58,680 nucleotides of DNA from Thermoplasmata archaeon (GTDB lineage Archaea; Thermoplasmatota; Thermoplasmata; RBG-16-68-12): assembly GCA_041483635.1 (NCBI GenBank), contig JBGPGA010000002.1:1-58680 (forward strand), in the 5' to 3' direction. The notes under the pieces were generated by a model. The model had not been told where the DNA came from and did not search any database. It saw nothing but the letters and a program-made list of their open reading frames with translations. This document shows positions 2,148-24,284 of this stretch, piece by piece; position 1 is the first letter of the stretch, and each line of letters opens with the position of its first letter. The translations under genes were made by a program, and so were the position numbers.

Positions 2148-2555
2148 TCACCGGAGGTCCGGACGGGCCAACACGGTCTCCGCGAAGAGGACGCCCTTCA
2201 CCGTGCGCAGGCGGTCCGCGAGCTCGGCGACCTGCTTCGCATCTCCCTCCACGATAAGGACCTCGAGGCACGCCTCCTCGCTCAGGTGCGTGTGTGCTGT
2301 GGCACGGATCGCGCTCAGGAAGTCGTGCTGACGGTGCAGAATCCGATGCGTGACCATGCCGACGTCGTGGCGGTAGACGATCGTGATCGTGCCCACGACG
2401 TTCCCCCCGGACTCAATCCGGCGCTGGACGAGCCCCTGGCGTATCAGGTCTCGCAACCCTTCGGAACGGCTCGAATACCCCTTCTCTCTGACGAACCGGT
2501 CGAACTCCGCGAGGAGGGGTCCCTCCAGAGAAACGCCGATGCGCTCCACAGCCAT
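2148..2555 (-). CDS. nikR: Nickel-responsive regulator NikR (RHH/CopG N-domain plus metal-binding C-domain)
   Basis: 135 aa. Starts with the ribbon-helix-helix ERIGVSLEGPLLAEFDRFVREKGYSSRSEGLRDLIR. The C-domain carries the conserved His/Cys pattern (VYRHD...HRQHDF...HTHL...CLEV) of NikR. Confidence 0.85.
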   Translation of the reverse strand: MAVERIGVSLEGPLLAEFDRFVREKGYSSRSEGLRDLIRQGLVQRRIESGGNVVGTITIVYRHDVGMVTHRILHRQHDFLSAIRATAHTHLSEEACLEVLIVEGDAKQVAELADRLRTVKGVLFAETVLARPDLR

Positions 2556-2629
2556 GTGCTACCCGTCGTGGACGAAGTGTTACCACCAGATGAATCCTGC
2601 GGGTTTCGCCGCCGGACCCGCGCGCTAAA

Positions 2630-2637
2630 GATTTAAG
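2630..2637 (+). promoter_or_regulatory. TATA-like element (GATTTAAG) for the nickel permease gene
   Basis: AT-rich octamer in the nikR/permease intergenic region, 54 nt before ATG 2684. Implies a leader of about 24 nt. Confidence 0.4.
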
Positions 2638-2645
2638 ATGCAGAA

Positions 2646-2672
2646 GTGTTACTCCTAGAACCGGCGTCATAC
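2646..2672 (+). promoter_or_regulatory. Candidate NikR operator (GTGTTA-N15-TCATAC)
   Basis: Imperfect inverted repeat just downstream of the TATA. Compare the E. coli NikR box GTATGA-N16-TCATAC. Overlaps one copy of the direct repeat GAAGTGTTAC (2574-2583 and 2643-2652). Confidence 0.3.
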
Positions 2673-2683
2673 CGCCTTTTTGC

Positions 2684-3436
2684 ATGTCCGATCCCATCCC
2701 CCTTTGGGTGCTCACCCTCGCGGCCCTTGGTCTGGGCCTTCGCCACGGAGTCGATTACGACCACATCTCCGCTATCTGGGACATCACGAGCAGTCAGAAG
2801 ACGGTCCGAGGCGGCGTAATCCTTGGATGGTTCTACGCCGGCGGCCATGGCACCATCGTGGCGGCCCTCGGCATGGCGGCGGTCCTGATCGGTCTCCGCC
2901 TACCTCCCGGCGTGGACAACGCGATGACCGTCGTCGTCGGGGCCACGTTGATCATCCTCGGCATCTACGTCATCAACATGCTCGTCCGCCATCCGGGCGA
3001 GACGTTCCAGCTCAAGTCGCGATGGGTCTTGATCGCCTCGGGGGTCCTGCATGCGTACGAGCGCGCGGTGCTGCGCCTGACGGGTCGGATCCGGAAGCAG
3101 CGCAAGGTCGATCTCAGGGTGGCCGGACCCGTTTCGGCCTACGTGATCGGCCTCATCCACGGGGTCGGTGGGGAAACGCCGACCCAGATTCTCCTCTTCG
3201 TCATCGCAGGGGGCATCACGGGCGGGCTCGCGGGTGCGATCGTCGTCCTGGCCTTCGTCGCCGGCGTCTTCATCACGAACACGGTCGAGTCGGTTTTGGC
3301 CTCCCTGGGCTACGCCCGAGCCGCCGGGAGCCCCCAGCTGTTCCGCCGGATTGCGGCGGTCGCAGCGATCTTCAGTCTCTTGATCGGTGCGCTGTTCGTG
3401 ATGGGCGGCAGCGGACTCCTTCCTCCCCTGAGCTGA
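2684..3436 (+). CDS. Nickel/cobalt permease-like membrane protein (NiCoT/NicO-like, HX4DH motif)
   Basis: 250 aa, about 6 TM helices. LRHGVDYDHISAI in the first helices resembles the RHA(V/F)DADHI signature of NiCoT transporters. Divergent from nikR. Confidence 0.65.
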   Translation: MSDPIPLWVLTLAALGLGLRHGVDYDHISAIWDITSSQKTVRGGVILGWFYAGGHGTIVAALGMAAVLIGLRLPPGVDNAMTVVVGATLIILGIYVINMLVRHPGETFQLKSRWVLIASGVLHAYERAVLRLTGRIRKQRKVDLRVAGPVSAYVIGLIHGVGGETPTQILLFVIAGGITGGLAGAIVVLAFVAGVFITNTVESVLASLGYARAAGSPQLFRRIAAVAAIFSLLIGALFVMGGSGLLPPLS

Positions 3437-3480
3437 CGACGCTCCGTCCGCATGTGTCGGTCAATTGCCTCTGTGCAAGC

Positions 3481-3488
3481 CCTTAAGT
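3481..3488 (+). promoter_or_regulatory. TATA-like element CCTTAAGT
   Basis: 33 nt upstream of ATG 3514. Confidence 0.45.
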
Positions 3489-3513
3489 TCGACCCTCGAC
3501 CTGAAACCCATCG

Positions 3514-4008
3514 ATGGACTACGCGAAGCAACTTGACCAGGCACGAACTCTCGCGGACCTCTTCGAACTCGTAAAGCGGGGCGTGTCCTCTGTCGTTGGG
3601 CGGACCCGCGCGGGTCTCATGCTCGCCCTGGCCGACCTGGGCAACCATCCCCAGGGGTTCCTCGGCGCTTTCTATCCGATCGCCACGAACGTGATTGTGA
3701 TGAACAAGGTTCCTCTCCTTCGGATTCAAGAGACGAACCCGGAGCTCTACAAGCCCTACGCCTTCTATATTCTTCTCCACGAGTACCTGCATTCCGTCGG
3801 ATTCATCGACGAGCTTCTGTGCCGCGACCGGGCCCGCGCGATTGCGGAATCCCTCTTCGGGCCTAGCCACCTCGTGACCCGAATCTCACAGGACTTCTCC
3901 CAGTTCTTTCCGAACCTCGTGTTTCCAGACGCGGCCTGGCAGCCGCAGGAACTCCGCTTGGAGTTCGTACCGAACTTCGACCGCGGCTCTGCGTCGTACT
4001 TCGCGTGA
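3514..4008 (+). CDS. Hypothetical protein with HExxH motif (possible small zinc metallopeptidase fold)
   Basis: 164-aa ORF with YILLHEYLHSVGF (HExxH). TATA-like CCTTAAGT lies 33 nt upstream of the ATG. GC is somewhat lower than in neighbouring genes. Confidence 0.55.
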   Translation: MDYAKQLDQARTLADLFELVKRGVSSVVGRTRAGLMLALADLGNHPQGFLGAFYPIATNVIVMNKVPLLRIQETNPELYKPYAFYILLHEYLHSVGFIDELLCRDRARAIAESLFGPSHLVTRISQDFSQFFPNLVFPDAAWQPQELRLEFVPNFDRGSASYFA

Positions 4009-4126
4009 GTCGCGTGGGTTTCATCTTCCCGATCGAATAAATATGGATGCAGGATTCCCCTGGACCGGCGCTCTCTCAAACGCAGGGCAGGGCGGGTGAG
4101 AGGCGTGCCGGGGTCGGATCGGGGTC

Positions 4127-5614
4127 CTACCTCTTCGTCCCCTTAGCCTCTCTGGCGATCCGGGGGATCTCCTTCTCGAGACCGAGCTCGCGCGCGACAC
4201 CGCGGCCGTACTCGGGATCGGCGCGATAGAAGTGGCCGATCTGGCGGAGCTGGATTTCGCGGGGGACGCTCTTCATCGCGCGGCCGATGTTGCCGATGAG
4301 GCGTTCTTTCTCCTCCGCGGACATCATTCGGAATAGGTTCCCTGGTTGTGAGTAGTCCTCGTTGCCGACGCGATGGTCGTAACGATCCGCGTCACCCGAG
4401 ATCCGGAGCGGTGGTTCTCTGAGGCTCGGGTCTTGGGTCGGCCCACCAAAGCTGTTGGGCTCGTAGTTCGGCGAGCCTCCACTGTTCCCGTCGAAGCGCA
4501 TGAAGCCGTCGCGGTGGTATGTGTTCACGGGGCTTTGGGCCTTGTTGACCGGGAGCGCGGCGTAGTTGACCCCGATCCGGTAGCGGTGGGCATCGGCGTA
4601 GGAGAGGAGCCGGGCCTGCAACATCTTGTCCGGGGACGCGCCGATCCCAGGGATGAGGTTCGAGGGCTCGAACGCGGCCTGCTCGACCTCGGCGAAGTAG
4701 TTCTCCGGGTTCCGGTTCAGTTCGATGACGCCGACATCGAGCAGCGGGTAGTCTCCGTGGGGCCAGACTTTGGTGAGGTCGAACGGATGGATGTGGTAGC
4801 TCTCGGCCTCCTTTTCGGGCATGATCTGAATCTTGACGCTCCACTTGGGGTACTCCCCGCGCTCGATCGCATCGTGGAGGTCCTGGCGGTGGAGGTCGGG
4901 CGTCTGCCCTGCGATGCGGGCCGCCTCTTCGTCGGTCAGGTTCTTGATTCCCTGCTGGGTCTTGACGTGCCATTTGACCCAGAACCGCTCTCCTTTCACG
5001 TTCCACAGGCTGTACGCGTGCGAGGAGTAGCCGTTCATGTTCCGGTAGGTCGCGGGGATCCCGCGGTCCGAGAACAGGATCGTCACCTGATGGAGGGACT
5101 CGGGCGAGAGCGACCAGAAGTCCCACTGCATCGTGGGATCGCGAAGCCCCGTCTTGGGATCGCGCTTTTGCGAATGAATGAAGTCCTGGAACTTGAGCGG
5201 GTCCCGCACGAAGAAGACTGGGGTGTTATTCCCCACCAGGTCCCAGTTTCCCTCCTCGGTGTAGAACTTCATCGCAAACCCCCGCGGGTCGCGGACGGTG
5301 TCCGCGGAGCCGATCTCTCCCGCCACCGTGGAAAATCGCAGGAAGACGTCACACCGGTTTCCGACCTTCTGGAAGAGCTTCGCCCGAGTGTAGCGGGAGA
5401 GTTCCCGGGTGACGGTGAAGGTTCCCCCGGCACCGGCGCCTTTCGCGTGGACGACGCGTTCGGGGACGCGCTCGCGGTTGAAGTGCGCCATCCGTTCCAT
5501 CAGCTCGTGATCGGCCATCAGCACGGGGCCGCGCGGTCCGGCCGTCAGGCTGTTCTGATTGTCGGCGACGGGAATGCCCGCCGCGGTCGTCATTGTCTTC
5601 TTCTTCTCGACCAT
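4127..5614 (-). CDS. Monofunctional haem catalase
   Basis: [55 protein letters not shown] and [11 protein letters not shown] are classic catalase blocks. Start set at the second ATG (5614, MVEKKK) because the AT-rich TATA (5645-5659) lies only about 20 nt from the first ATG (5635) and GGAAGGGGG precedes 5614. Confidence 0.9.
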
Positions 5615-6722: not shown

Positions 6723-7028
6723 TCACGACTTCGCGTGGTATCGCACCCTGCCGACAATCAGGTGCCGCGGCACCATGCCGAAGTGGCGGCTGTCGCGGCT
6801 GTGGGCCATGTTGTCGCCTAGGACGAAGAAACCAGCCGTCGCGTCGCCGGACATGATCCGCTTGACGAGGAACTGGCCGGTCGCCTCGGGGTTCCGGAGC
6901 ACAACGATTTCTCCGGCCATCGGGTTCCGCGATCGGTACGCCCACCGGTTCACGAGGACGTAGTCGCCGGCCCGGAGCGTCGGCTCCATGCTCTGGTCTT
7001 CGACCCGGAACCGGGCGATGGGGAACAT
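6723..7028 (-). CDS. sodX: S26-family peptidase, NiSOD maturation protease SodX-like
   Basis: 101 aa with SMEPTL (catalytic Ser), VKRI (Lys) and GDN..SRDSR blocks of signal-peptidase-I-type enzymes but no membrane anchor. Lies 12 nt downstream of sodN on the same strand. Confidence 0.75.
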   Translation of the reverse strand: MFPIARFRVEDQSMEPTLRAGDYVLVNRWAYRSRNPMAGEIVVLRNPEATGQFLVKRIMSGDATAGFFVLGDNMAHSRDSRHFGMVPRHLIVGRVRYHAKS

Positions 7029-7040
7029 CCGGAAGGGAGG

Positions 7041-7562
7041 TCACCCGAGCTTCGGGTAGACCGTCTCGCGGGCCGTCGGGTAGGGGGCCTTCGCCTTGAA
7101 TGTGGCAATGCCCTTCGTCTTCCAGAACGCCTCCGCGATCTCGTTGGCGAGCTTGAGCATGTCCTCGGCCGCGGCGAGGTTGATCTCCTGGCGTCCCTTG
7201 CTCCCCGCCTTCAGCGCCTTCCACACGGTGTCGTGGAGCGTCGGGAACTGCTGGACGTGCTCCGGCTTGAAATAGTCGCCGTACAGGATGCGGACTTCCT
7301 GCTTGTAGATCTCCGCGTGCTGCTCCTTCGTGGCGATGTAGCGGGCGAGCTTGTTGTGGTACTCGTGCTTCTGCTCCGGGGTCGCGTTCGCGCCCGGCTT
7401 CTCGAGCTGGCCGACCAGGTCGACCATGCGGATGACCGTGTGCGCCGCAAGCTGGGCGTGGTGCGGGTCGTAGATGCCGCAGGGGATGTCGCAGTGCGCA
7501 TAGGCGACCGGGGCCGGGTGGACCCGGTCGAGGGCTCGGAGTAGCTTGTGTGCGAGGGACAT
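7041..7562 (-). CDS. sodN: Nickel superoxide dismutase precursor
   Basis: A 22-aa leader is followed by HCDIPCGIYDP (Ni-hook HCxxPCGxY). LYGDYFKP and AFWKTKG match Streptomyces SodN blocks. TATA TTTAAATA lies 31 nt upstream. Confidence 0.9.
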   Translation of the reverse strand: MSLAHKLLRALDRVHPAPVAYAHCDIPCGIYDPHHAQLAAHTVIRMVDLVGQLEKPGANATPEQKHEYHNKLARYIATKEQHAEIYKQEVRILYGDYFKPEHVQQFPTLHDTVWKALKAGSKGRQEINLAAAEDMLKLANEIAEAFWKTKGIATFKAKAPYPTARETVYPKLG

Positions 7563-17684: not shown

Positions 17685-17705
17685 GGCAGGGGCGGTTCGG
17701 CCCGC

Positions 17706-17780
17706 GGGCACGTAGGCTAGTTTGGACTAGGCTAGAGGCCTTCGGAGCCTCAGACCGGGGTTCGAATCCCCGCGTGCCCG
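17706..17780 (+). tRNA. tRNA-Arg (anticodon TCG)
   Basis: Cloverleaf read by eye. Acceptor GGGCACG/CGTGCCC. D arm GGCT-AGTTTGGACTA-GGCT (with G-U pairs). Anticodon arm GAGGC-CTTCGGA-GCCTC. 4-nt variable loop. T arm CGGGG-TTCGAAT-CCCCG. Discriminator G. No encoded CCA. Confidence 0.85.
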
Positions 17781-17874
17781 TCTCGTCTCGCGTTTGTCAA
17801 CCCGGGGTCATTGCCGAGACATACCAACAAATACGAGATATCCAGCTCGTCGATCCAATTCAAGAAGGGCCGGG

Positions 17875-20436
17875 ATGCCTCGAGATGGGGACACACCCCT
17901 CGCGCGCTTCGCGCACGCCATCGCAGTCGGAGACGGATTCTCCTTGGGCGCTCCTGTCCTCTCGGACGACGGTTCCACGGTGACCGTGCCCGTCCTTCAG
18001 ACCCGAGCCCGCGAGCGGCGATACGTCCTCGCTCAGGAGGTCTCGGACCTGATTTCGGCCGTCGACCCGGGCCAGCTTGATCGGCTGCGGGTGCGCAATG
18101 CGACCGCGTCGCGGGTGCTCCTCCTCCCGGGCTCGCTCTTCGAGGGAAAGAAGACCCCGTCCCGCGCCACGACCGCGGGCGCCTTCCTCGAACCGAAGTC
18201 CGAGGCGGAGATCGAGGTCAAGTGCGTGCATGCGTCGCAGTCCATCACAACCGGGGCCGTCCTCCCTCTCGCTGACGCTCTGGCGCCTGCGGCGGTCCGC
18301 CAGGCGCTGCTGGCCCGCGACCAAGGCTGGGTCTGGACCTCCGTGGACCAGGCCGTGGCGGCGCAGCAGGGTTCCTCGTCAGTAGTGTCGACTGTTGAAT
18401 CGGAGTCACAAGCCTCGGATGATCTTCTCGCCGGGGCGGCGGCATCCAGCCCGAACCATCTCGGTCGAGAAACGATGCCTCCGGGAACCGCGTCGGACAC
18501 GCGGCAGTGCGGGGTCGCCATCCTCGACGCCGGGGGCGTCGTCGTACTCGAGATCTTCGACAGCCCTACATCTTGGCGCGTCGCCTCTCCGCTCATCCGG
18601 AAGCAACGTACCGATCCCATCCAGCCGAATCGCCGCTCCCCTCTGATTGTGGGCCTGATTCCCCAGAGGGCCTCTGAAGCCGCCCGGGAGTTCCTCACAC
18701 GGATCGGGGAGGTCGAACACCGCCGCGTGACTCCGCACAGCGCGGTGGCCCCTGACTCGATGTCGGAATACACGGACCTGGATGGGGAGATTGTCCATCT
18801 CATCGCGTTCGGCCGTCTCGACTCACGGCGGGAGCCTGCAGCCGAGGCGCCCGGACTCTCTCTCGCGGGGTTTCCAGCCCATGGGGATTCCGACCGCGGA
18901 ATCGCCGATTCCCCGCTGGCCAACGCCGCGCCGATCGCGCTCGATGGGGACGTCGCGGTGGCTCAGGGCCCCGCAGTAGACTTGGAAGACGAACCTGAGC
19001 CCAGGGGATCGGGGAACCGCCCGCGCCGACGAAAAGTATTAACGAGCGGCTGGGACGCCTCGACGTTCGAATCCCTCGAGCGCTACTCCCGGAAGGAGTT
19101 CGGCGGAGACCGCTCCGCCGCGATGCGCTTCCTCGTCCGCCAAGGACTAGGCCGGCGCGGATACATGGGCCCGCGGCCCCAACGCCCCGCACCCGCGATC
19201 CTGCCATCCGCCGAACCCGAGGCGGCGACCCTCCGCGGGGAGATGGGTCGCGCGACCCTGGAATCGAGGATTCAGGACTACGAGCGGATCGCCCAGACCG
19301 ATGCCTACGCCGGATGGCTTCGCACGCGGGCCCGCGTCGAGCTGGAGCGGCTGGCAGAGGACGAGGCGGACGAACTCCTTCGCGCGGCCGCTCAATCCGC
19401 CCTGGAACGGCTTCCCTCCCCCGTCCCGCTTCCTGAGACCCCTCCCCCTATCGAGGAGGAGCCTCTCCTCCCGCCTCCGGTGGACGTGCGCCCCCTGCTG
19501 CGGCGGGCTTTCTTGGCGAGTGCGGGCGGCCGCTATGCCGACGCCCTCGCGTTGTTCGACAAGGTCCTCGATGCGGAGCCGGACAACCGCACCGCGCTGT
19601 TGGGCCGCGCGGTCGCCCTCCGTCGGTCCGGCAAGGGCCCCGAGGCGCTCGCCGCGCTCGACCTCGTCCTGGGTCTGGAACCCCTGAACGCGGCCGCCTT
19701 GCTGAACCGCGGCCGCGTCCTCCAGGAGCGAGGGGATTTCCCAGGGGCTCTGGAGACGTTCGACCGACTCGCGGCCGTCGCGCCGAACGACTGGGACGTG
19801 TGGATGGCGCGGGGCGACGTCCTTGCGCGGATGGGCCAGGATCGGGAGGCGCTCGGCGCATACTCCGAGGCCCTCCGGCGGAACCCGGACGACGAGGGCC
19901 TCAAGACGAGGATCCGTGCCCTGGAACGAATCCGGCTGGCGCCGGCTCCGGCACCCCTCCCGCGCGTCGCGCTGCCCCGGGACGTCCAGGGAGGCCAATC
20001 CTACCTGGTGAAGGAGGGGAAGGTCGATCTGAGCTACCGCGTGTTCCGGATGCTCGCAGGCCGGAAGCTCCCCTCCCTCGTGATCACCCATCAGGCCCCG
20101 GAGATGGTCCGCGCGGAACAGGGGCTCTTGGACGTGCCGATCCTGGAGCTCAGCCACGCGGCCGGAGTGGATCGGATCGCCCCGACCTCCCTCGCCGTCC
20201 TGACGAAGACGATCGAGCGGTTCGTGGAAGATCATCGGGGCCATGCCGCGATTCTCCTTGATGGCCTCGGGATGCTTGTCGCGAACAACGGAACCCGGGA
20301 CACGGTCCTCTTCCTCGAACGCGTGAATGAAGCGATCCTTCCGTCCCAGTCTGTCTTCCTGATCTCGGTCACGCCGGGGGATCTGGGCGAGAAGGAGACC
20401 GCGATCCTGGAACGCGATCTCCGGGTCCTTTCCTGA
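17875..20436 (+). CDS. Large multidomain protein: uncharacterised N-domain, acidic linker, RHH-like segment, TPR repeats, C-terminal DUF835-like module
   Basis: Start at ATG 17875 (853 aa). TTG 17794 in the track lies only 14 nt after the tRNA. TPR-like repeats (ALALFDKVLDAEPDN, ALAALDLVLGLEPLN, ALETFDRLAAVAPND, ALGAYSEALRRNPDD). The C-terminus SLVITHQAPE...AAILLDGLGMLV...VFLISVTPGDL resembles archaeal DUF835. Confidence 0.75.
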   Translation: MPRDGDTPLARFAHAIAVGDGFSLGAPVLSDDGSTVTVPVLQTRARERRYVLAQEVSDLISAVDPGQLDRLRVRNATASRVLLLPGSLFEGKKTPSRATTAGAFLEPKSEAEIEVKCVHASQSITTGAVLPLADALAPAAVRQALLARDQGWVWTSVDQAVAAQQGSSSVVSTVESESQASDDLLAGAAASSPNHLGRETMPPGTASDTRQCGVAILDAGGVVVLEIFDSPTSWRVASPLIRKQRTDPIQPNRRSPLIVGLIPQRASEAAREFLTRIGEVEHRRVTPHSAVAPDSMSEYTDLDGEIVHLIAFGRLDSRREPAAEAPGLSLAGFPAHGDSDRGIADSPLANAAPIALDGDVAVAQGPAVDLEDEPEPRGSGNRPRRRKVLTSGWDASTFESLERYSRKEFGGDRSAAMRFLVRQGLGRRGYMGPRPQRPAPAILPSAEPEAATLRGEMGRATLESRIQDYERIAQTDAYAGWLRTRARVELERLAEDEADELLRAAAQSALERLPSPVPLPETPPPIEEEPLLPPPVDVRPLLRRAFLASAGGRYADALALFDKVLDAEPDNRTALLGRAVALRRSGKGPEALAALDLVLGLEPLNAAALLNRGRVLQERGDFPGALETFDRLAAVAPNDWDVWMARGDVLARMGQDREALGAYSEALRRNPDDEGLKTRIRALERIRLAPAPAPLPRVALPRDVQGGQSYLVKEGKVDLSYRVFRMLAGRKLPSLVITHQAPEMVRAEQGLLDVPILELSHAAGVDRIAPTSLAVLTKTIERFVEDHRGHAAILLDGLGMLVANNGTRDTVLFLERVNEAILPSQSVFLISVTPGDLGEKETAILERDLRVLS

Positions 20437-20500
20437 TCCGATCGCTCCGTTCGCGGTCCTCGTCAGGCTTATGCGCGGGCAGGGGCTCCGGCCGAATGGG

Positions 20501-21064
20501 ATGGAGACCCGGCGATCGCACCCGGACCCTGCAGGCGTCGTCACCCGGAGGGCTGTCCCCGCGGACGCGCCGGCCCTGGCCGAGATCTACAACGATGCGA
20601 TCGAGGAGAGGATCGCCACGTTCGAGACCGCACCCCGTTCGGAGTCGGCCATGCGCGATTGGATCGGCCAGCACGACGACTTCCACCCCGTCCTCGTGAC
20701 CGAGGTCTCCGATCCGGGAGGCGATGCGAAGGGAGGTCATCAGGTCGTCGCATGGGCCTCCATCGCGAGCTACCGGCCCCGGGAGTGCTACGTAGGGGTC
20801 GGCGAGTTCTCCATCTATGTCCAGGCGGGCTACCGTGGCCGCGGCATCGGACAACACCTCCTTGGCTCGCTCGTCGACGAAGCCCGCGAGCTCGGGTACT
20901 GGAAGCTCGTTTCGCGAATGTTCCCTCACAACACGGCGAGCCGTCGGCTCGTGGCTCGCTGCGGCTTCCGAGAGGTCGGCGTGTACGAGAAGCACGGGAA
21001 GCTGGACGGCCGCTGGCTGGACACGGTCATCGTGGAGCGGCTGATCCCAGAGAACCTCCGCTGA
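20501..21064 (+). CDS. GNAT N-acetyltransferase, phosphinothricin/methionine-sulfoximine acetyltransferase-like
   Basis: ALAEIYNDAIEERIATFE, QAGYRGRGIGQHLL and HNTASRRLVARCGFREVG. ATG 20501 lies 35 nt from TATA-like GGCTTATG. Confidence 0.8.
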   Translation: METRRSHPDPAGVVTRRAVPADAPALAEIYNDAIEERIATFETAPRSESAMRDWIGQHDDFHPVLVTEVSDPGGDAKGGHQVVAWASIASYRPRECYVGVGEFSIYVQAGYRGRGIGQHLLGSLVDEARELGYWKLVSRMFPHNTASRRLVARCGFREVGVYEKHGKLDGRWLDTVIVERLIPENLR

Positions 21065-21153
21065 GGCCATCGATTCCGGCCTCCCTGACGGCCCCCGCGT
21101 CATATGCCTCACCCTTATGCGACGAACGGGAATGAGGTTAGGGAGGATTGTCC

Positions 21154-21699
21154 ATGGCGAAGAAGACGAAGCGGACCGCCAAAAGACCGCGCCTCGCGCA
21201 GAAGCTGAGCCCGATTCCGCCGGGCATGCGCACCGTGACCCCGTACCTCTTCATTGCGGGCGCGGCGCAGGCCCTCGAGTTCTACAAGAGGGCCTTCGGG
21301 GCGAAGGAGATTTCACGACAGCCCACGCCGGATGGCAAGCTCATCCACGCGATGATGAAGATCGGCGATTCCTTTGTCATGCTGTCCGATGCGTTCGAGG
21401 AATCCTCGACGCGGTCACCCACGAGTGTCGGCGCCCTCACATCCATGCTCCACGTCTACACGAAGGATGTGGACAAGCTCTGGAACCAGGCCCTCGCGGC
21501 GGGCGCCAAGGTCGCCATGCCGCTCGACGACGTGTTCTGGGGCGAACGGTACGGGCAGCTCGAGGACCCGTTCGGACACCGATGGACGCTCTCCATGCGG
21601 ATTCCGATGAGCCGCGAGGAACGCGAGGCGAAGCAGAAGGCCGCAATGGCGATGTTTGCCCACGGCGAACATCCGGGCGCGGAGCCGCAATCACGCTAG
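21154..21699 (+). CDS. VOC/glyoxalase-fold protein (PhnB-like)
   Basis: VTPYLFIAGAAQALEFYKRAFGA and FWGERYGQLEDPFGHRWTL are typical of PhnB-like VOC proteins. A basic N-terminal extension is present. ATG 21154 is preceded by GGGAGGA. Confidence 0.75.
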   Translation: MAKKTKRTAKRPRLAQKLSPIPPGMRTVTPYLFIAGAAQALEFYKRAFGAKEISRQPTPDGKLIHAMMKIGDSFVMLSDAFEESSTRSPTSVGALTSMLHVYTKDVDKLWNQALAAGAKVAMPLDDVFWGERYGQLEDPFGHRWTLSMRIPMSREEREAKQKAAMAMFAHGEHPGAEPQSR

Positions 21700-22628
21700 C
21701 CGTGCTCCGCGTCTTCGAAGACCGCAGCCCGGTGCGATTCCGGGAGGAAGGCGTAGACCCGGTCGCGCGCGGCATCGACGCCGATCGTATGGGCCCCTTT
21801 CTCCGTGGGGCAGGATTCGATCCGCTCCAGGGTCTGCGTGTCGAAGACGTCGATGACGCCGGGGTCACCGATGGCGACGTAGAGGTGGTTCCTGTGGGAG
21901 TTGAGGAAGACCACATCGGGCGGACCGCTGAGCGGCCGCTCGTCGAGGGTCTCGCCCGAGGACCGGTTGAGGACGATGAGCCGACCGTCGTCACATGCGC
22001 AGAAGAGGCGCCCGCGCGTCGCGTCGAGGTCCAGGCCGTGCGGTCCGGTGGCCGGGATGGGCAACGTGCGTGCGACCTGATCCGGATGCGGGATGTCGAT
22101 GACCGCGATCTGAGGCGGGTCGCGGATGTTGACGTAGAAGGCCCGCGTCTTGTCGTCGTAGAGGGGCCATCGGGTGCGGCCGGCAACCGGAACACTCGCA
22201 ATCATCGTCCTGGAGGCGATGTCCACCAGGGAGACCGTGGTGGAACCCGGGATCTTCGGGTCGCCCACATTCGCCGCCAGGAGCAGGCCGCGGGAGGGAG
22301 CGAACGCCAGGCCGTTTGGGTGGACACCCACCTTCACCTTTCCCGCGTCGGCATCCTTCCCGTCCTCGAATATGCTGACGGTGTTCTCTCCGCGATTCGA
22401 GGTGAAGACGAGATTCCTTTCGTCGGAGACGAGGACGCCCGCCACGCCCCTCAGGCCGGTGATGGATCGAAGGTAGCGGTCCGTCCGGAGGTCGATGATG
22501 TCGACCGCGTCGTTCGCGGTATGGGCCAGGTAGAGGCGGCCCGAGGCTCCATGGACGGCCGCGTGGTCGAACCCGCCCTCTCCGTGGTGTTCCGGAAGCG
22601 CGATGAAACCCCGGGGTTCGAGGCTCAT
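21696..22628 (-). CDS. YVTN-type beta-propeller repeat protein
   Basis: Repeated approximately 40-aa units (VHPNGLAF, GPHGLDLD, ...). ATG 22628 overlaps the TGA of the upstream ChrB-like gene (TGATG). Confidence 0.7.
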   Translation of the reverse strand: MSLEPRGFIALPEHHGEGGFDHAAVHGASGRLYLAHTANDAVDIIDLRTDRYLRSITGLRGVAGVLVSDERNLVFTSNRGENTVSIFEDGKDADAGKVKVGVHPNGLAFAPSRGLLLAANVGDPKIPGSTTVSLVDIASRTMIASVPVAGRTRWPLYDDKTRAFYVNIRDPPQIAVIDIPHPDQVARTLPIPATGPHGLDLDATRGRLFCACDDGRLIVLNRSSGETLDERPLSGPPDVVFLNSHRNHLYVAIGDPGVIDVFDTQTLERIESCPTEKGAHTIGVDAARDRVYAFLPESHRAAVFEDAEHG

Positions 22629-23092
22629 CAGGCCGCGTGCTCCAGCTTCCCCTTCCCTTCGACCTTCAGCTTGCAATAGGTGTACAGGGCGTCGTACGCG
22701 GGGAACTGGAGCCGCATGTTGTCGTGGTCATCCTTCGCGTTCGTGCGGAACCCGAGGGCCATCGCCTCCAGGCCGGCCCCTTCCGGCCGCGGCCGCCGAG
22801 GCGCCGCGTCCGCGGTGCGGACGACTTCCGCCATGTCGAGCAGGGCGGGGTCCGTGAGTTTGTACTTCCGGATGATCGCATCGAAGCTGCAGCGCTCGTC
22901 GTCCCCCTCTTTGAAGTGGTGGAGCTCGGCTCCCGGCGTGTCGAACGGGATGGCGCCCTGCTCCTTCGCTACGTCGAGGACCTTCTCCCTCGGGACGAAC
23001 AGGAACTCCGCCTTCGGATCGACGAACCGGGAGATGAGCCAGGGACAGGCGATCCGGTCCACCTTGGCCTTCTCTCTCGTCACCCATTTCAT
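22628..23092 (-). CDS. ChrB C-terminal-domain-like (chromate resistance family) protein
   Basis: MKWVTREKAKVDRIACPWLISRFVDPKAEFLFV matches the conserved N-terminus of the Chrom_res domain as I recall it. GGAGG lies 8 nt before the ATG. Confidence 0.65.
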   Translation of the reverse strand: MKWVTREKAKVDRIACPWLISRFVDPKAEFLFVPREKVLDVAKEQGAIPFDTPGAELHHFKEGDDERCSFDAIIRKYKLTDPALLDMAEVVRTADAAPRRPRPEGAGLEAMALGFRTNAKDDHDNMRLQFPAYDALYTYCKLKVEGKGKLEHAA

Positions 23093-23159
23093 GTGTCGTT
23101 CCTCCAGGGAAGCCCGACGGCCCGCCGGCTACAAAAGGCTGGTGCCCAAACGACATCCG

Positions 23160-24284
23160 TCATCCGGGCGGGGGCTTGCCTGGGGTCTCCTTCCCCTTCT
23201 CCTCCGGCGGGTGGACCTTCCGGAAGCTCACGTAGATCAAGGCGTCGTACAGCAGCTTGAGGGCCCCGGCGGCCACGAGCGGCGTGCCGAGCCAGAGGTT
23301 CTCCAAGGCGTACCCCGCGATGGAGGGGCTGATGGACGAGGTGACGGTTCGCGTGGTGCTTGTGAACCCTGCCGCCGGTGTTCGGTCTGCCTCGTCCACG
23401 ATGGCCATGACGTAGGATTGCCGCGTGGGCACGTCCATCTGGGAAAGCGACTGCCGGCAGAGGAGCAGGACCACCGCACCCAGGGCGGTCGGCGCGAAGG
23501 CGACCCCGATGAGGAAGACGTTCGAGGGCACGTGGGTGAAGACCATCGTTCGGAGCAGCCCGATTCGTTTGGCGATGGGAGTCGCGAGGAAGAAAGACCC
23601 GGCGGTCACGAGCTGGGTGAGGAGGAAGAGGAAGCCGAGGGAGCCCAGTTTCAGTCCGAACCGGTCCGCGAAGTACAGCGAGAGGATGTTCCCGCCGATG
23701 AAGCCCCCGCCGAACGAATCGATTGCAAACAACCCGGAAAGGCGGTACACGATGGGCCGGGCCTTCGGAGAGAGGACCGCGCGTTTCGTTGCGGCGGCGT
23801 CCGATTCGACCTGCTTCGATAACCGGGAGTAGAGGAACGCCCCGAGCAGCCCCGACGCGAGGTAGCCGAGGAAGAAGGGCCGCAGCTGGTCCGGCGACGG
23901 GGTCGATGCGAGGCCGGCCAGGCCCGCCCCCACGGCCGACGCTCCGTATCCCACGAAGTTGTAGACGCTGAAGGCGAACGTCCTGCGGCTCGACTCGCAG
24001 GTCCGCGGCAGGATGGCCTGCTCGAGGGAGAGGAACGGCCCGACCTCCCCCGCGCCGACGGTCATGTTGCCGACGATCCCCGCGAAGACCGGGGCCCACC
24101 AGGCCGTCGAGCTGAAGAGGAGCGCGCCCGCGATGCAATCGGTGAGCGCGAAGAACACGAGCGTTCGCCTGCGCCCGATGCGATCTGCGACGAAGCTGAT
24201 GACGAACGTGTACAGCGCGCTGCTGAGGATCGTGAGCGTCAGGACGATGCCGATTTGGACGAGGCTGAACCCGAGGTACTGCAA
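23160..24284 (-). CDS. MFS transporter (5' end unresolved)
   Basis: 11 TM helices and motif A (VADRIGRRR) after the first helix of the track ORF. The missing TM1 (TIPYGFLSVAFSLYL) is encoded in frame upstream of the TTG at 24284 but has no canonical start codon. See finding. Confidence 0.7.
   Translation of the reverse strand: MQYLGFSLVQIGIVLTLTILSSALYTFVISFVADRIGRRRTLVFFALTDCIAGALLFSSTAWWAPVFAGIVGNMTVGAGEVGPFLSLEQAILPRTCESSRRTFAFSVYNFVGYGASAVGAGLAGLASTPSPDQLRPFFLGYLASGLLGAFLYSRLSKQVESDAAATKRAVLSPKARPIVYRLSGLFAIDSFGGGFIGGNILSLYFADRFGLKLGSLGFLFLLTQLVTAGSFFLATPIAKRIGLLRTMVFTHVPSNVFLIGVAFAPTALGAVVLLLCRQSLSQMDVPTRQSYVMAIVDEADRTPAAGFTSTTRTVTSSISPSIAGYALENLWLGTPLVAAGALKLLYDALIYVSFRKVHPPEEKGKETPGKPPPG

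Follow-up and report, generated by a model that had tools for sequence, protein, structure and literature searches.

A Thermoplasmata protein that joins an ARPP-1 domain, a ribbon-helix-helix-like module, TPR repeats and DUF835

The window analysed here is the whole of a 58,680-nucleotide stretch (positions 1 to 58,680 of contig JBGPGA010000002.1, assembly GCA_041483635.1) from the genome of a Thermoplasmata archaeon (G000; 2.36 Mb, 89% complete). Our subject is one large gene at 17875–20436 on the plus strand, which encodes a protein of 853 amino acids (853 codons plus stop). An earlier note, made from the sequence alone, had singled out this protein for an unusual chain of domains beside a tRNA gene. 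The length that it gave is borne out by a long plus-strand open reading frame (ORF; 17794–20436) with a conserved ATG at 17875. The tRNA, a tRNA-Arg with the anticodon TCG (17705–17782, +), is the sole tRNA that ARAGORN finds in the window, and it also precedes the orthologue in genomes G075 and G012 and on the metagenome contig of P0025; it does lie just upstream, although the gap to the ATG is 92 nucleotides and not the 95 first given. About 50 clusters of full-length orthologues, with 47–67% identity, share the N-terminal pattern MP.DGE.PLAR and the upstream DNA is conserved up to the ATG, so the start codon is secure. Judging from these alignments, the gene is real and conserved. One orthologue carries the NCBI name ‘DUF6569 family protein [Thermoplasmata archaeon]’, and soil and groundwater metagenomes are the source of the related contigs. 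The GC content of the region (0.66–0.70) is like that of the remaining window.

The 92-nucleotide spacer between tRNA and ATG (17783–17874, +) is, in a four-genome alignment, more conserved than the coding sequence after it. The blocks that are kept are TTTGTCAAC-CGGGG, an A/T-rich AAATA..GATAT and CGATCCAATTCAAGAAGGGCCGGG, the last of which abuts the ATG. We presume that this region holds the promoter and leader, and the conserved 24-nucleotide block that touches the ATG is a candidate promoter or operator.

From its N terminus, the protein comprises an ARPP-1 domain, a disordered linker, a ribbon-helix-helix (RHH)-like module, a helical segment, a proline-rich linker, four TPRs and DUF835. 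Pfam recognizes ARPP-1, several TPR families and DUF835, and the domain boundaries were set with an AlphaFold2 model built on an alignment of 50 orthologues, with a mean predicted local distance difference test (pLDDT) score of 80. In this model, a β-rich N-terminal domain (residues 5–312, pLDDT >90) is followed by a disordered stretch (317–391), the helices 395–409 and 413–423, three longer helices (452–512; 19228–19410, as with all parts of the gene on the plus strand), a linker rich in proline and glutamate (513–538; 19411–19488), nine TPR-type helices (539–688; 19489–19938) and an α/β domain (708–852). The five modules proposed in the earlier note were all verified by Pfam and the structure model, and each of the motif strings that it quoted is found in the translated protein, but its list omitted the conserved three-helix segment 452–512, which is possibly involved in dimerization, and the proline-rich linker. 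Its acidic low-complexity linker (residues 317–384; 18823–19026) is indeed disordered (pLDDT <50), but is mainly rich in alanine, proline and glycine and only mildly acidic (12 D/E versus 7 K/R in 69 residues).

The TPR region, previously suspected of having four or five repeats, consists of four repeats and a capping helix according to Pfam, the nine-helix model and Foldseek. Pfam matches extend over residues ~540–680 (TPR_2 at 65 bits, with many other TPR models), and Foldseek places this part on the consensus four-repeat TPR protein 9gzg (template-modelling score by target 0.91, root mean square deviation 1.5 Å, 150 columns), with MamA as a further match; a search with the full-length model gave matches dominated by TPR proteins. 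Proteins of ~700 amino acids that match the TPR part occur in every genome and might be taken for paralogues; the G000 copy that we checked (contig C14) consists of TPRs and a helix-hairpin-helix, and is not an orthologue.

Conservation is distributed unevenly along the protein. Mean identity to 49 orthologues is highest over residues 381–430, the RHH stretch (80%), followed by the TPRs (73%), DUF835 and the helices 452–512 (55% each), the ARPP-1 domain (41%) and the first linker (22%), which also varies in length. The divergence of the gene is thus concentrated in the ARPP-1 domain and the linkers.

The best-conserved stretch contains the module at residues 385–432 (19027–19170). Its pattern is RHH-like: a basic arm (RRRK), a putative strand (VLTSGW), helix 395–409, a G-D-R-S turn and helix 413–423. 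The earlier note had seen in this segment the second helix of an RHH fold; an RHH-like segment is present, but it appears to be a whole strand-helix-turn-helix module and not just helix 2. A profile search of the Protein Data Bank (PDB) with the segment returned the RHH of Escherichia coli NikR only, in register and not significant (E = 0.93). Against the NikR that is encoded in the window itself, hhalign gave a probability of 52% (E = 1.4e-4) and BLASTP gave 41% identity over 27 amino acids (E = 4e-4). Residues 386–393 are unstructured in the monomer model, yet are inside the predicted dimer interface, and the GGDRS turn falls between the predicted helices. When modelled as two copies, the module scored 0.42, whereas none of 3 controls scored above 0.00. 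Among proteins of solved structure, 20 of 30 pairs of one chain and 1 of 23 single chains reach this mark, counts that hold only roughly here because a custom alignment was used for the model. At least 79% of the contacts were common to the runs, the pLDDT of the partner was at least 67 and the predicted symmetric interface (386–398, 400–404 and 413–432) takes in the strand and both helices, as would that of intertwined RHH chains. Solved structures include many RHH dimers, and the two-copy score therefore indicates likeness and is not proof; the homodimer is a prediction, and its pass may reflect resemblance to solved RHH dimers. Each of these lines is modest, and it is their combined weight that makes an RHH the most likely reading of residues 385–432.

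RHH regulators with an attached domain are well known: PutA joins an RHH to proline-catabolic enzymes and NikR joins one to a metal-binding domain. The protein in the window resembles NikR in having a small RHH module joined to a presumed ligand-handling domain, and helix 1, turn and helix 2 align in register. It differs from both in that the RHH is internal rather than N-terminal, that the presumed sensor is ARPP-1 and that no Pfam RHH model matches; DNA binding by this module is something that we infer. The module is hidden, unannotated by Pfam, in proteins that are labelled ‘DUF6569 family protein’ or ‘TPR repeat protein’.

The N-terminal domain (17887–18810) matches PF20208 over residues 62–311 (profile positions 45–296 of 297) with 54.5 bits against a cut-off of 27. 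PF20208 is ARPP-1, the renamed DUF6569, and the suggestion that this region is DUF6569-like was therefore correct. The predicted fold is β-rich, with C117 (18223–18225) on a barrel insert at residues ~55–136 and Gln150 (18322–18324) in the next helix; a structure search with the model found no solved fold relative of the domain beyond generic small barrels. In their passages on ARPP, Iyer, Burroughs, Anantharaman and Aravind (Viruses 14:1977, 2022; PMC9503650) describe the domain as unrelated to known domains and as having an absolutely conserved cysteine and glutamine, and tie it to genes for ADP-ribosylglycohydrolase (ARG) and rhodanese-phosphatase (R-P). There, ARPP is defined in ARG-centred systems that are predicted to be immune systems; the contexts described are ARG/R-P systems and pairs of genes in which the partner is HIRAN, WYL or a deacetylase. 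The same passages put forward ribose or sugar moieties as the targets of ARPP, possibly through SRAP-like cross-linking by the cysteine, and draw links to the DNA-end-binding HIRAN domain.

A profile search with the N-terminal domain across 1.84 billion representatives yielded 2936 clusters. The nearest 145 clusters (clustered at 50% identity, fused orthologues excluded) contain proteins of 190–530 amino acids and served for comparison. None of the 50 fused orthologues departs from C117 or Q150, and in the nearest-cluster alignment each residue is found in 145 of 146 rows, the other row being gapped at each position; T94, R97, W154, G213 and E226 are invariant as well. The 145 nearest clusters are also near-invariant at R84, Q95 and Q211, but only 5, 4 and 23 of the 50 fused orthologues, respectively, retain these residues, and the protein in the window has L84 and P95. 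The relaxation of these three positions accounts for the earlier impression that conserved polar residues had been changed, an impression that does not extend to T94, R97, C117, Q150, W154 and E226. Measured against the ARPP family as a whole, the protein is typical in that its N-terminal 310 residues score above the family cut-off, keep the cysteine and glutamine and are predicted to be β-rich, with the cysteine on a barrel. It is atypical in its fusion to RHH, TPR and DUF835, in having no linked ARG or R-P gene and in the relaxation of R84, Q95 and Q211.

Fusion of ARPP-1 to a DNA-binding domain is not peculiar to this gene. In 71 of the 145 nearest clusters, the C-terminal tail is homologous to a tail that Pfam calls an HxlR/ArsR/MarR-type winged helix, and in one further cluster of the set, P0076 (432 amino acids), the C terminus is the same RHH module as in the window (E = 6.5e-22). 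Given the 71 winged-helix tails and the RHH of P0076, the design that prevails in the nearest clade is an ARPP-1 domain with a small DNA-binding domain after it. These relatives belong to the same N-terminal clade as the protein in the window (E = 1e-42 to 1e-72) and share its order of ARPP-1, variable linker and small DNA-binding-type domain. They differ in ending after the DNA-binding domain (400–490 amino acids) and in keeping R84, Q95 and Q211, whereas the protein in the window continues for ~420 residues beyond them. By this comparison, it has the ARPP-1/DNA-binding design, to which a helical segment, TPRs and DUF835 have been added. Four winged-helix relatives were examined for genomic context: one has an R-P phosphatase neighbour, another a tyrosine recombinase, and the other two have no informative neighbours. 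The R-P phosphatase gene lies 57 nucleotides upstream of P0156, so that at least one winged-helix relative adjoins such a gene, unlike the gene in the window. One of the 145 clusters, represented by the metagenomic P0125 (534 amino acids), joins ARPP-1 to CDC48 N-terminal double-psi barrel domains, an undescribed ARPP-1 architecture.

At the C terminus (residues 705–853; 19987–20433), the DUF835 proposed earlier was recovered by Pfam as PF05763 at residues 720–848, scoring 67.4 bits (cut-off 33.1), and 72.1 bits when the whole genome was scanned. An hhalign comparison of 33 DUF835 sequences with the 21 KaiC-like domains of G000 gave a probability of 93.1% (E = 3.2e-7, 147 columns), with a 4-residue gap at Walker A (GtGK) and with LLDGL(GML) on the KaiC Walker-B strand. 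At the level of sequence profiles, this shows that DUF835 is a KaiC-like α/β fold from which the P-loop is deleted. A first hhalign run on a thin KaiC alignment had given a probability of 1.8% and was superseded by the deeper profiles. A search of PDB sequences with the DUF835 profile gave nothing significant (the archaellum protein FlaH/ArlH was at E = 0.95). DUF835, or ‘iKaiC’, has been described as an inactivated KaiC-like output domain of archaeal response regulators, for example REC-DUF835 proteins (Galperin et al. 2018, PMC5847659). Like these proteins, which are reported from Thermoplasmata (PMC5847659), the protein in the window has a C-terminal DUF835 above the cut-off that is KaiC-like without a P-loop; its partners are ARPP-1, RHH and TPRs, and it has no receiver domain.

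G000 encodes 13 DUF835 domains and 21 KaiC-like domains in its 2.36 Mb, and seven genomes sampled from this order have 21–28 KaiC-like domains per 2–3 Mb. The DUF835 studied here scores lower than its paralogues (67 versus 85–117 bits) and has DGLGML in place of the usual DGLEYL motif. In G000, DUF835 is also fused to a seven-transmembrane (7TM) receptor, a DnaA-type ATPase and a class I aminoacyl-tRNA synthetase; because these proteins are so different, DUF835 behaves as a promiscuous interaction module.

Several of these fusions merit description in themselves. On contig C118 (1736–4204), a KaiC-like gene (1736–2425) directly precedes a 7TM protein with two copies of DUF835 (2453–4204). The synthetase fusion (L028; G000:C111:5617–8097, minus strand) combines tRNA-synt_1, Anticodon_1 and DUF5915 with a helix-hairpin-helix, a double zinc ribbon and a C-terminal DUF835. 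ORFs of 1400–1500 amino acids that end in DUF835 occur in most relatives, and a housekeeping enzyme with a signalling-type domain is unusual. The ATPase fusion (L027; G000:C97:1753–3864, minus strand) is a 703-amino-acid bacterial DnaA-type ATPase with a Hda-lid, followed by DUF835.

The gene occupies a fixed position among housekeeping genes. The order of the block is M20 peptidase, nadC (QRPTase), methyltransferase, gcvH, tRNA-Arg, the gene itself, ChrB_C, MFS, thiolase, 3-hydroxyacyl-CoA dehydrogenase and Lhr. It is collinear in G075, in G012 and on the metagenome contigs of P0003, P0024 and P0025, the orthologues being 50–67% identical, and the gene is in the same slot in five of the seven other loci examined. 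It is the fastest-evolving gene of its block, with 62%, 54% and 50% identity versus 72–97% for its neighbours. No ARG or R-P phosphatase gene is present in the block. Among 38 genomes of the genus that were searched, the N-terminal domain was found in G000 and six others. These six carriers are the six closest by nadC identity (83–91%), whereas G005 (78%) and all others (≤75%) are without the gene. Outside the genus, no full-length match was found in 400 other genomes of the class that were sampled (two candidates per genome scored). In more distant members of the genus, the gene is absent and the locus rearranged, with a BNR/winged-helix gene and a tandem pair of tRNA-Arg genes there in G073 and the MFS gene in G003.

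Its place next to a tRNA had suggested that the gene is accessory DNA, and we considered and rejected a tRNA-integrated island. No integrase was found among the ORFs scanned at 14–32 kb, and the 3′ 22-mer of the tRNA has no second copy in the window even when up to 3 mismatches are tolerated, so there is no att-like repeat; the short repeats around the tRNA are tRNA stems only. GC content is ordinary, synteny is conserved and the gene is present and syntenic in the six nearest genomes. The fixed slot, the distribution over the six nearest genomes, the lack of an integrase and the unrepeated 3′ end of the tRNA therefore identify a clade-specific, vertically inherited chromosomal gene that is core to the subclade. 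For the gene itself, which also has the conserved 92 nucleotides before it, the accessory reading has to be given up: what the loci display is a conserved syntenic gene of the lineage, in five of the seven.

The explanation that we favour, tentatively and with real doubt, is that the protein is a large, soluble, one-component-style RHH DNA-binding regulator, inherited vertically in one subclade of a soil and groundwater genus of Thermoplasmata. Dimerization would occur through the predicted RHH at residues 385–432, preceded by the basic RRRK arm, and would probably be aided by the helices 452–512; the predicted dimer would bind DNA. ARPP-1 would be the input domain. It retains the invariant Cys117, Gln150, Arg97 and Glu226 and has thus probably kept the ability to bind, or react with, a ligand of the sugar or nucleotide type; having lost three near-invariant polar residues and evolving fastest, it may have altered its specificity or turned from an enzyme into a sensor. 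The TPRs and the P-loop-less KaiC-like DUF835 may mediate protein–protein contacts that link the regulator to the KaiC-like/DUF835 network.

Several points weigh against this explanation. Neither Pfam nor NCBIfam has an RHH model that matches, and for the RHH segment these libraries give nothing relevant; each sequence link to RHH proteins is weak alone, and the monomer model has no strand. No operator was identified, and a regulon search found no other sites in G000 for the conserved upstream blocks or for a TGTCAA-N-TTGACA repeat; the upstream blocks are thus unique in this genome and no regulon emerges. The loss of R84, Q95 and Q211 could mean that ARPP-1 is a decaying domain rather than a sensing one. 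No match to ARG (PF03747) was found in G000, a genome that is 89% complete, and its only clear R-P phosphatase (a PF22785 match) is on another contig. To our knowledge, ARPP-1 has no experimentally established ligand or activity.

A different use of the same parts is a DNA-directed enzyme or lesion sensor, in which the RHH tethers ARPP-1, the invariant cysteine acts on or captures a nucleic-acid sugar (SRAP-like, at abasic sites) and the TPR-DUF835 part recruits repair or signalling partners. We consider this rather improbable, although it would account for the invariance of C117 and Q150 in all fused orthologues and in 145 of 146 nearest-cluster rows, and for the dominance of DNA-binding fusions in the nearest clade. 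It also agrees with the action on sugar moieties, possible SRAP-like cross-link and HIRAN links put forward in the ARPP passages of PMC9503650, and Lhr-AlkZ helicase and MutY-type genes lie a few kilobases away in the conserved block. However, no repair gene is immediately adjacent or co-varies, several near-invariant residues beside the conserved core have been lost in the fused family, and ARPP-1 is the least constrained folded part of the protein (41%), a better fit to a sensor or a decaying domain than to a catalyst. The activity itself is purely hypothetical.

Lower still we rank a signalling adaptor that does not bind DNA, in which the RHH-like segment only dimerizes and the protein, as a scaffold, adds a ligand-binding head (ARPP-1) to hetero-oligomers of KaiC-like and DUF835 proteins. 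The relationship of DUF835 to oligomer-forming KaiC-like ATPases, its occurrence on proteins as different as an aminoacyl-tRNA synthetase, a DnaA-type ATPase and a 7TM receptor, the DUF835 gene directly after a KaiC-like gene on contig C118 and the good conservation of TPRs (73%) and DUF835 (55%) all fit such a scaffold. The RRRK arm and the close match of helix 2 to the NikR DNA-binding domain are, however, typical of DNA-binding RHHs, and in relatives the corresponding place is taken by genuine DNA-binding domains of the winged-helix type.

We regard as very improbable a single-gene conflict or defence protein, in which TPR-DUF835 senses an invader component and a fast-evolving ARPP-1 effector acts on ADP-ribose-type molecules: the ARG-centred predicted immune systems in which the passages of PMC9503650 define ARPP, the R-P phosphatase gene beside P0156 and the divergence of the gene (62%, 54% and 50% versus 72–97% in its block) speak for it, but the position among housekeeping genes is fixed in five of seven other loci, no integrase, att-like repeat, ARG, nuclease or other partner is nearby, PADLOC has no model that matches the protein or four of its neighbours, DUF835 is without the P-loop needed for a STAND-like switch, and the constrained parts are the RHH and TPRs rather than a sensor surface.

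The regulator reading can be widened. Archaeal ARPP-1 domains might serve as input modules of unrecognized one-component transcription factors (ARPP-1 with a winged helix or an RHH) that respond to a signal derived from ADP-ribose or a nucleotide, or to a lesion in DNA sugar, and in this protein the module might be wired through TPRs and a dead KaiC into a KaiC-like hub. We think this wider proposal unlikely to hold as a whole; if true, it would directly connect KaiC-based regulation with chemistry of the NAD/ADP-ribose type. ARPP-1 is widespread (~2,900 clusters at 50% identity), is without an experimental function and has been discussed mainly in predicted ADP-ribose-centred immune systems; the DNA-binding fusions of the nearest archaeal clade, together with the TPR and inactive-KaiC extension, offer a testable handle on its role. 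The protein is also an unusual addition to the poorly understood DUF835/KaiC-like network that is greatly expanded in these Thermoplasmata. The Pfam-recognized domains and the NCBI DUF6569 label on orthologues were known already. New are the hidden RHH module, the full architecture, the DNA-binding fusions that dominate the nearest ARPP-1 clade and the status of the gene as core to its subclade rather than accessory.

Downstream of the gene, and outside its conserved context, is a variable slot (20471–22676) with Pfam matches to GNAT (20471–21064, +), VOC/glyoxalase (21148–21699, +) and a β-propeller (21696–22676, −), followed by the conserved ChrB_C (22628–23092, −) and MFS (23160–24284, −) genes. 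The acetyltransferase, VOC and resistance-like neighbours listed in the earlier note are thus all present. Of the segment from 17.8 to about 25.4 kb, which the earlier note proposed to check for variability, the GNAT/VOC/propeller slot does vary, whereas the gene and the ChrB_C/MFS flank are conserved. Between the gene and ChrB_C, G000 and G075 have GNAT, VOC and propeller, G012 has the propeller and a GNAT remnant, the P0024 contig (soil metagenome) has only a VOC fragment, and the P0003 and P0025 contigs have none of the three. The slot is a local hotspot at which GNAT, VOC and propeller genes come and go in otherwise collinear genomes.

Two plus-strand ORFs in this region (21117–22679 and 22680–23822; 520 and 380 amino acids) were rejected as genes: they have no Pfam matches and overlie the VOC (+), propeller (−) and ChrB_C (−) genes. 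At high GC content, long ORFs that run antisense or off frame are a typical artefact, one that can mislead gene calling based on ORF length.

At the rearranged locus of G073 (L024; G073:C16), the two tRNA-Arg(TCG) genes stand in tandem at 7021–7191 (73 and 76 nucleotides, 22 nucleotides apart), beside an ORF of 674 amino acids with BNR repeats and a double winged helix. Assembly GCA_030157145.1 carries two paralogous full-length copies of the gene, P0015 and P0046, at unrelated, non-syntenic sites (L034, 6001–8493, and L057, 3501–6017). One of these copies adjoins a tRNA-Gly, and P0015 keeps the ancestral R84 and Q95.

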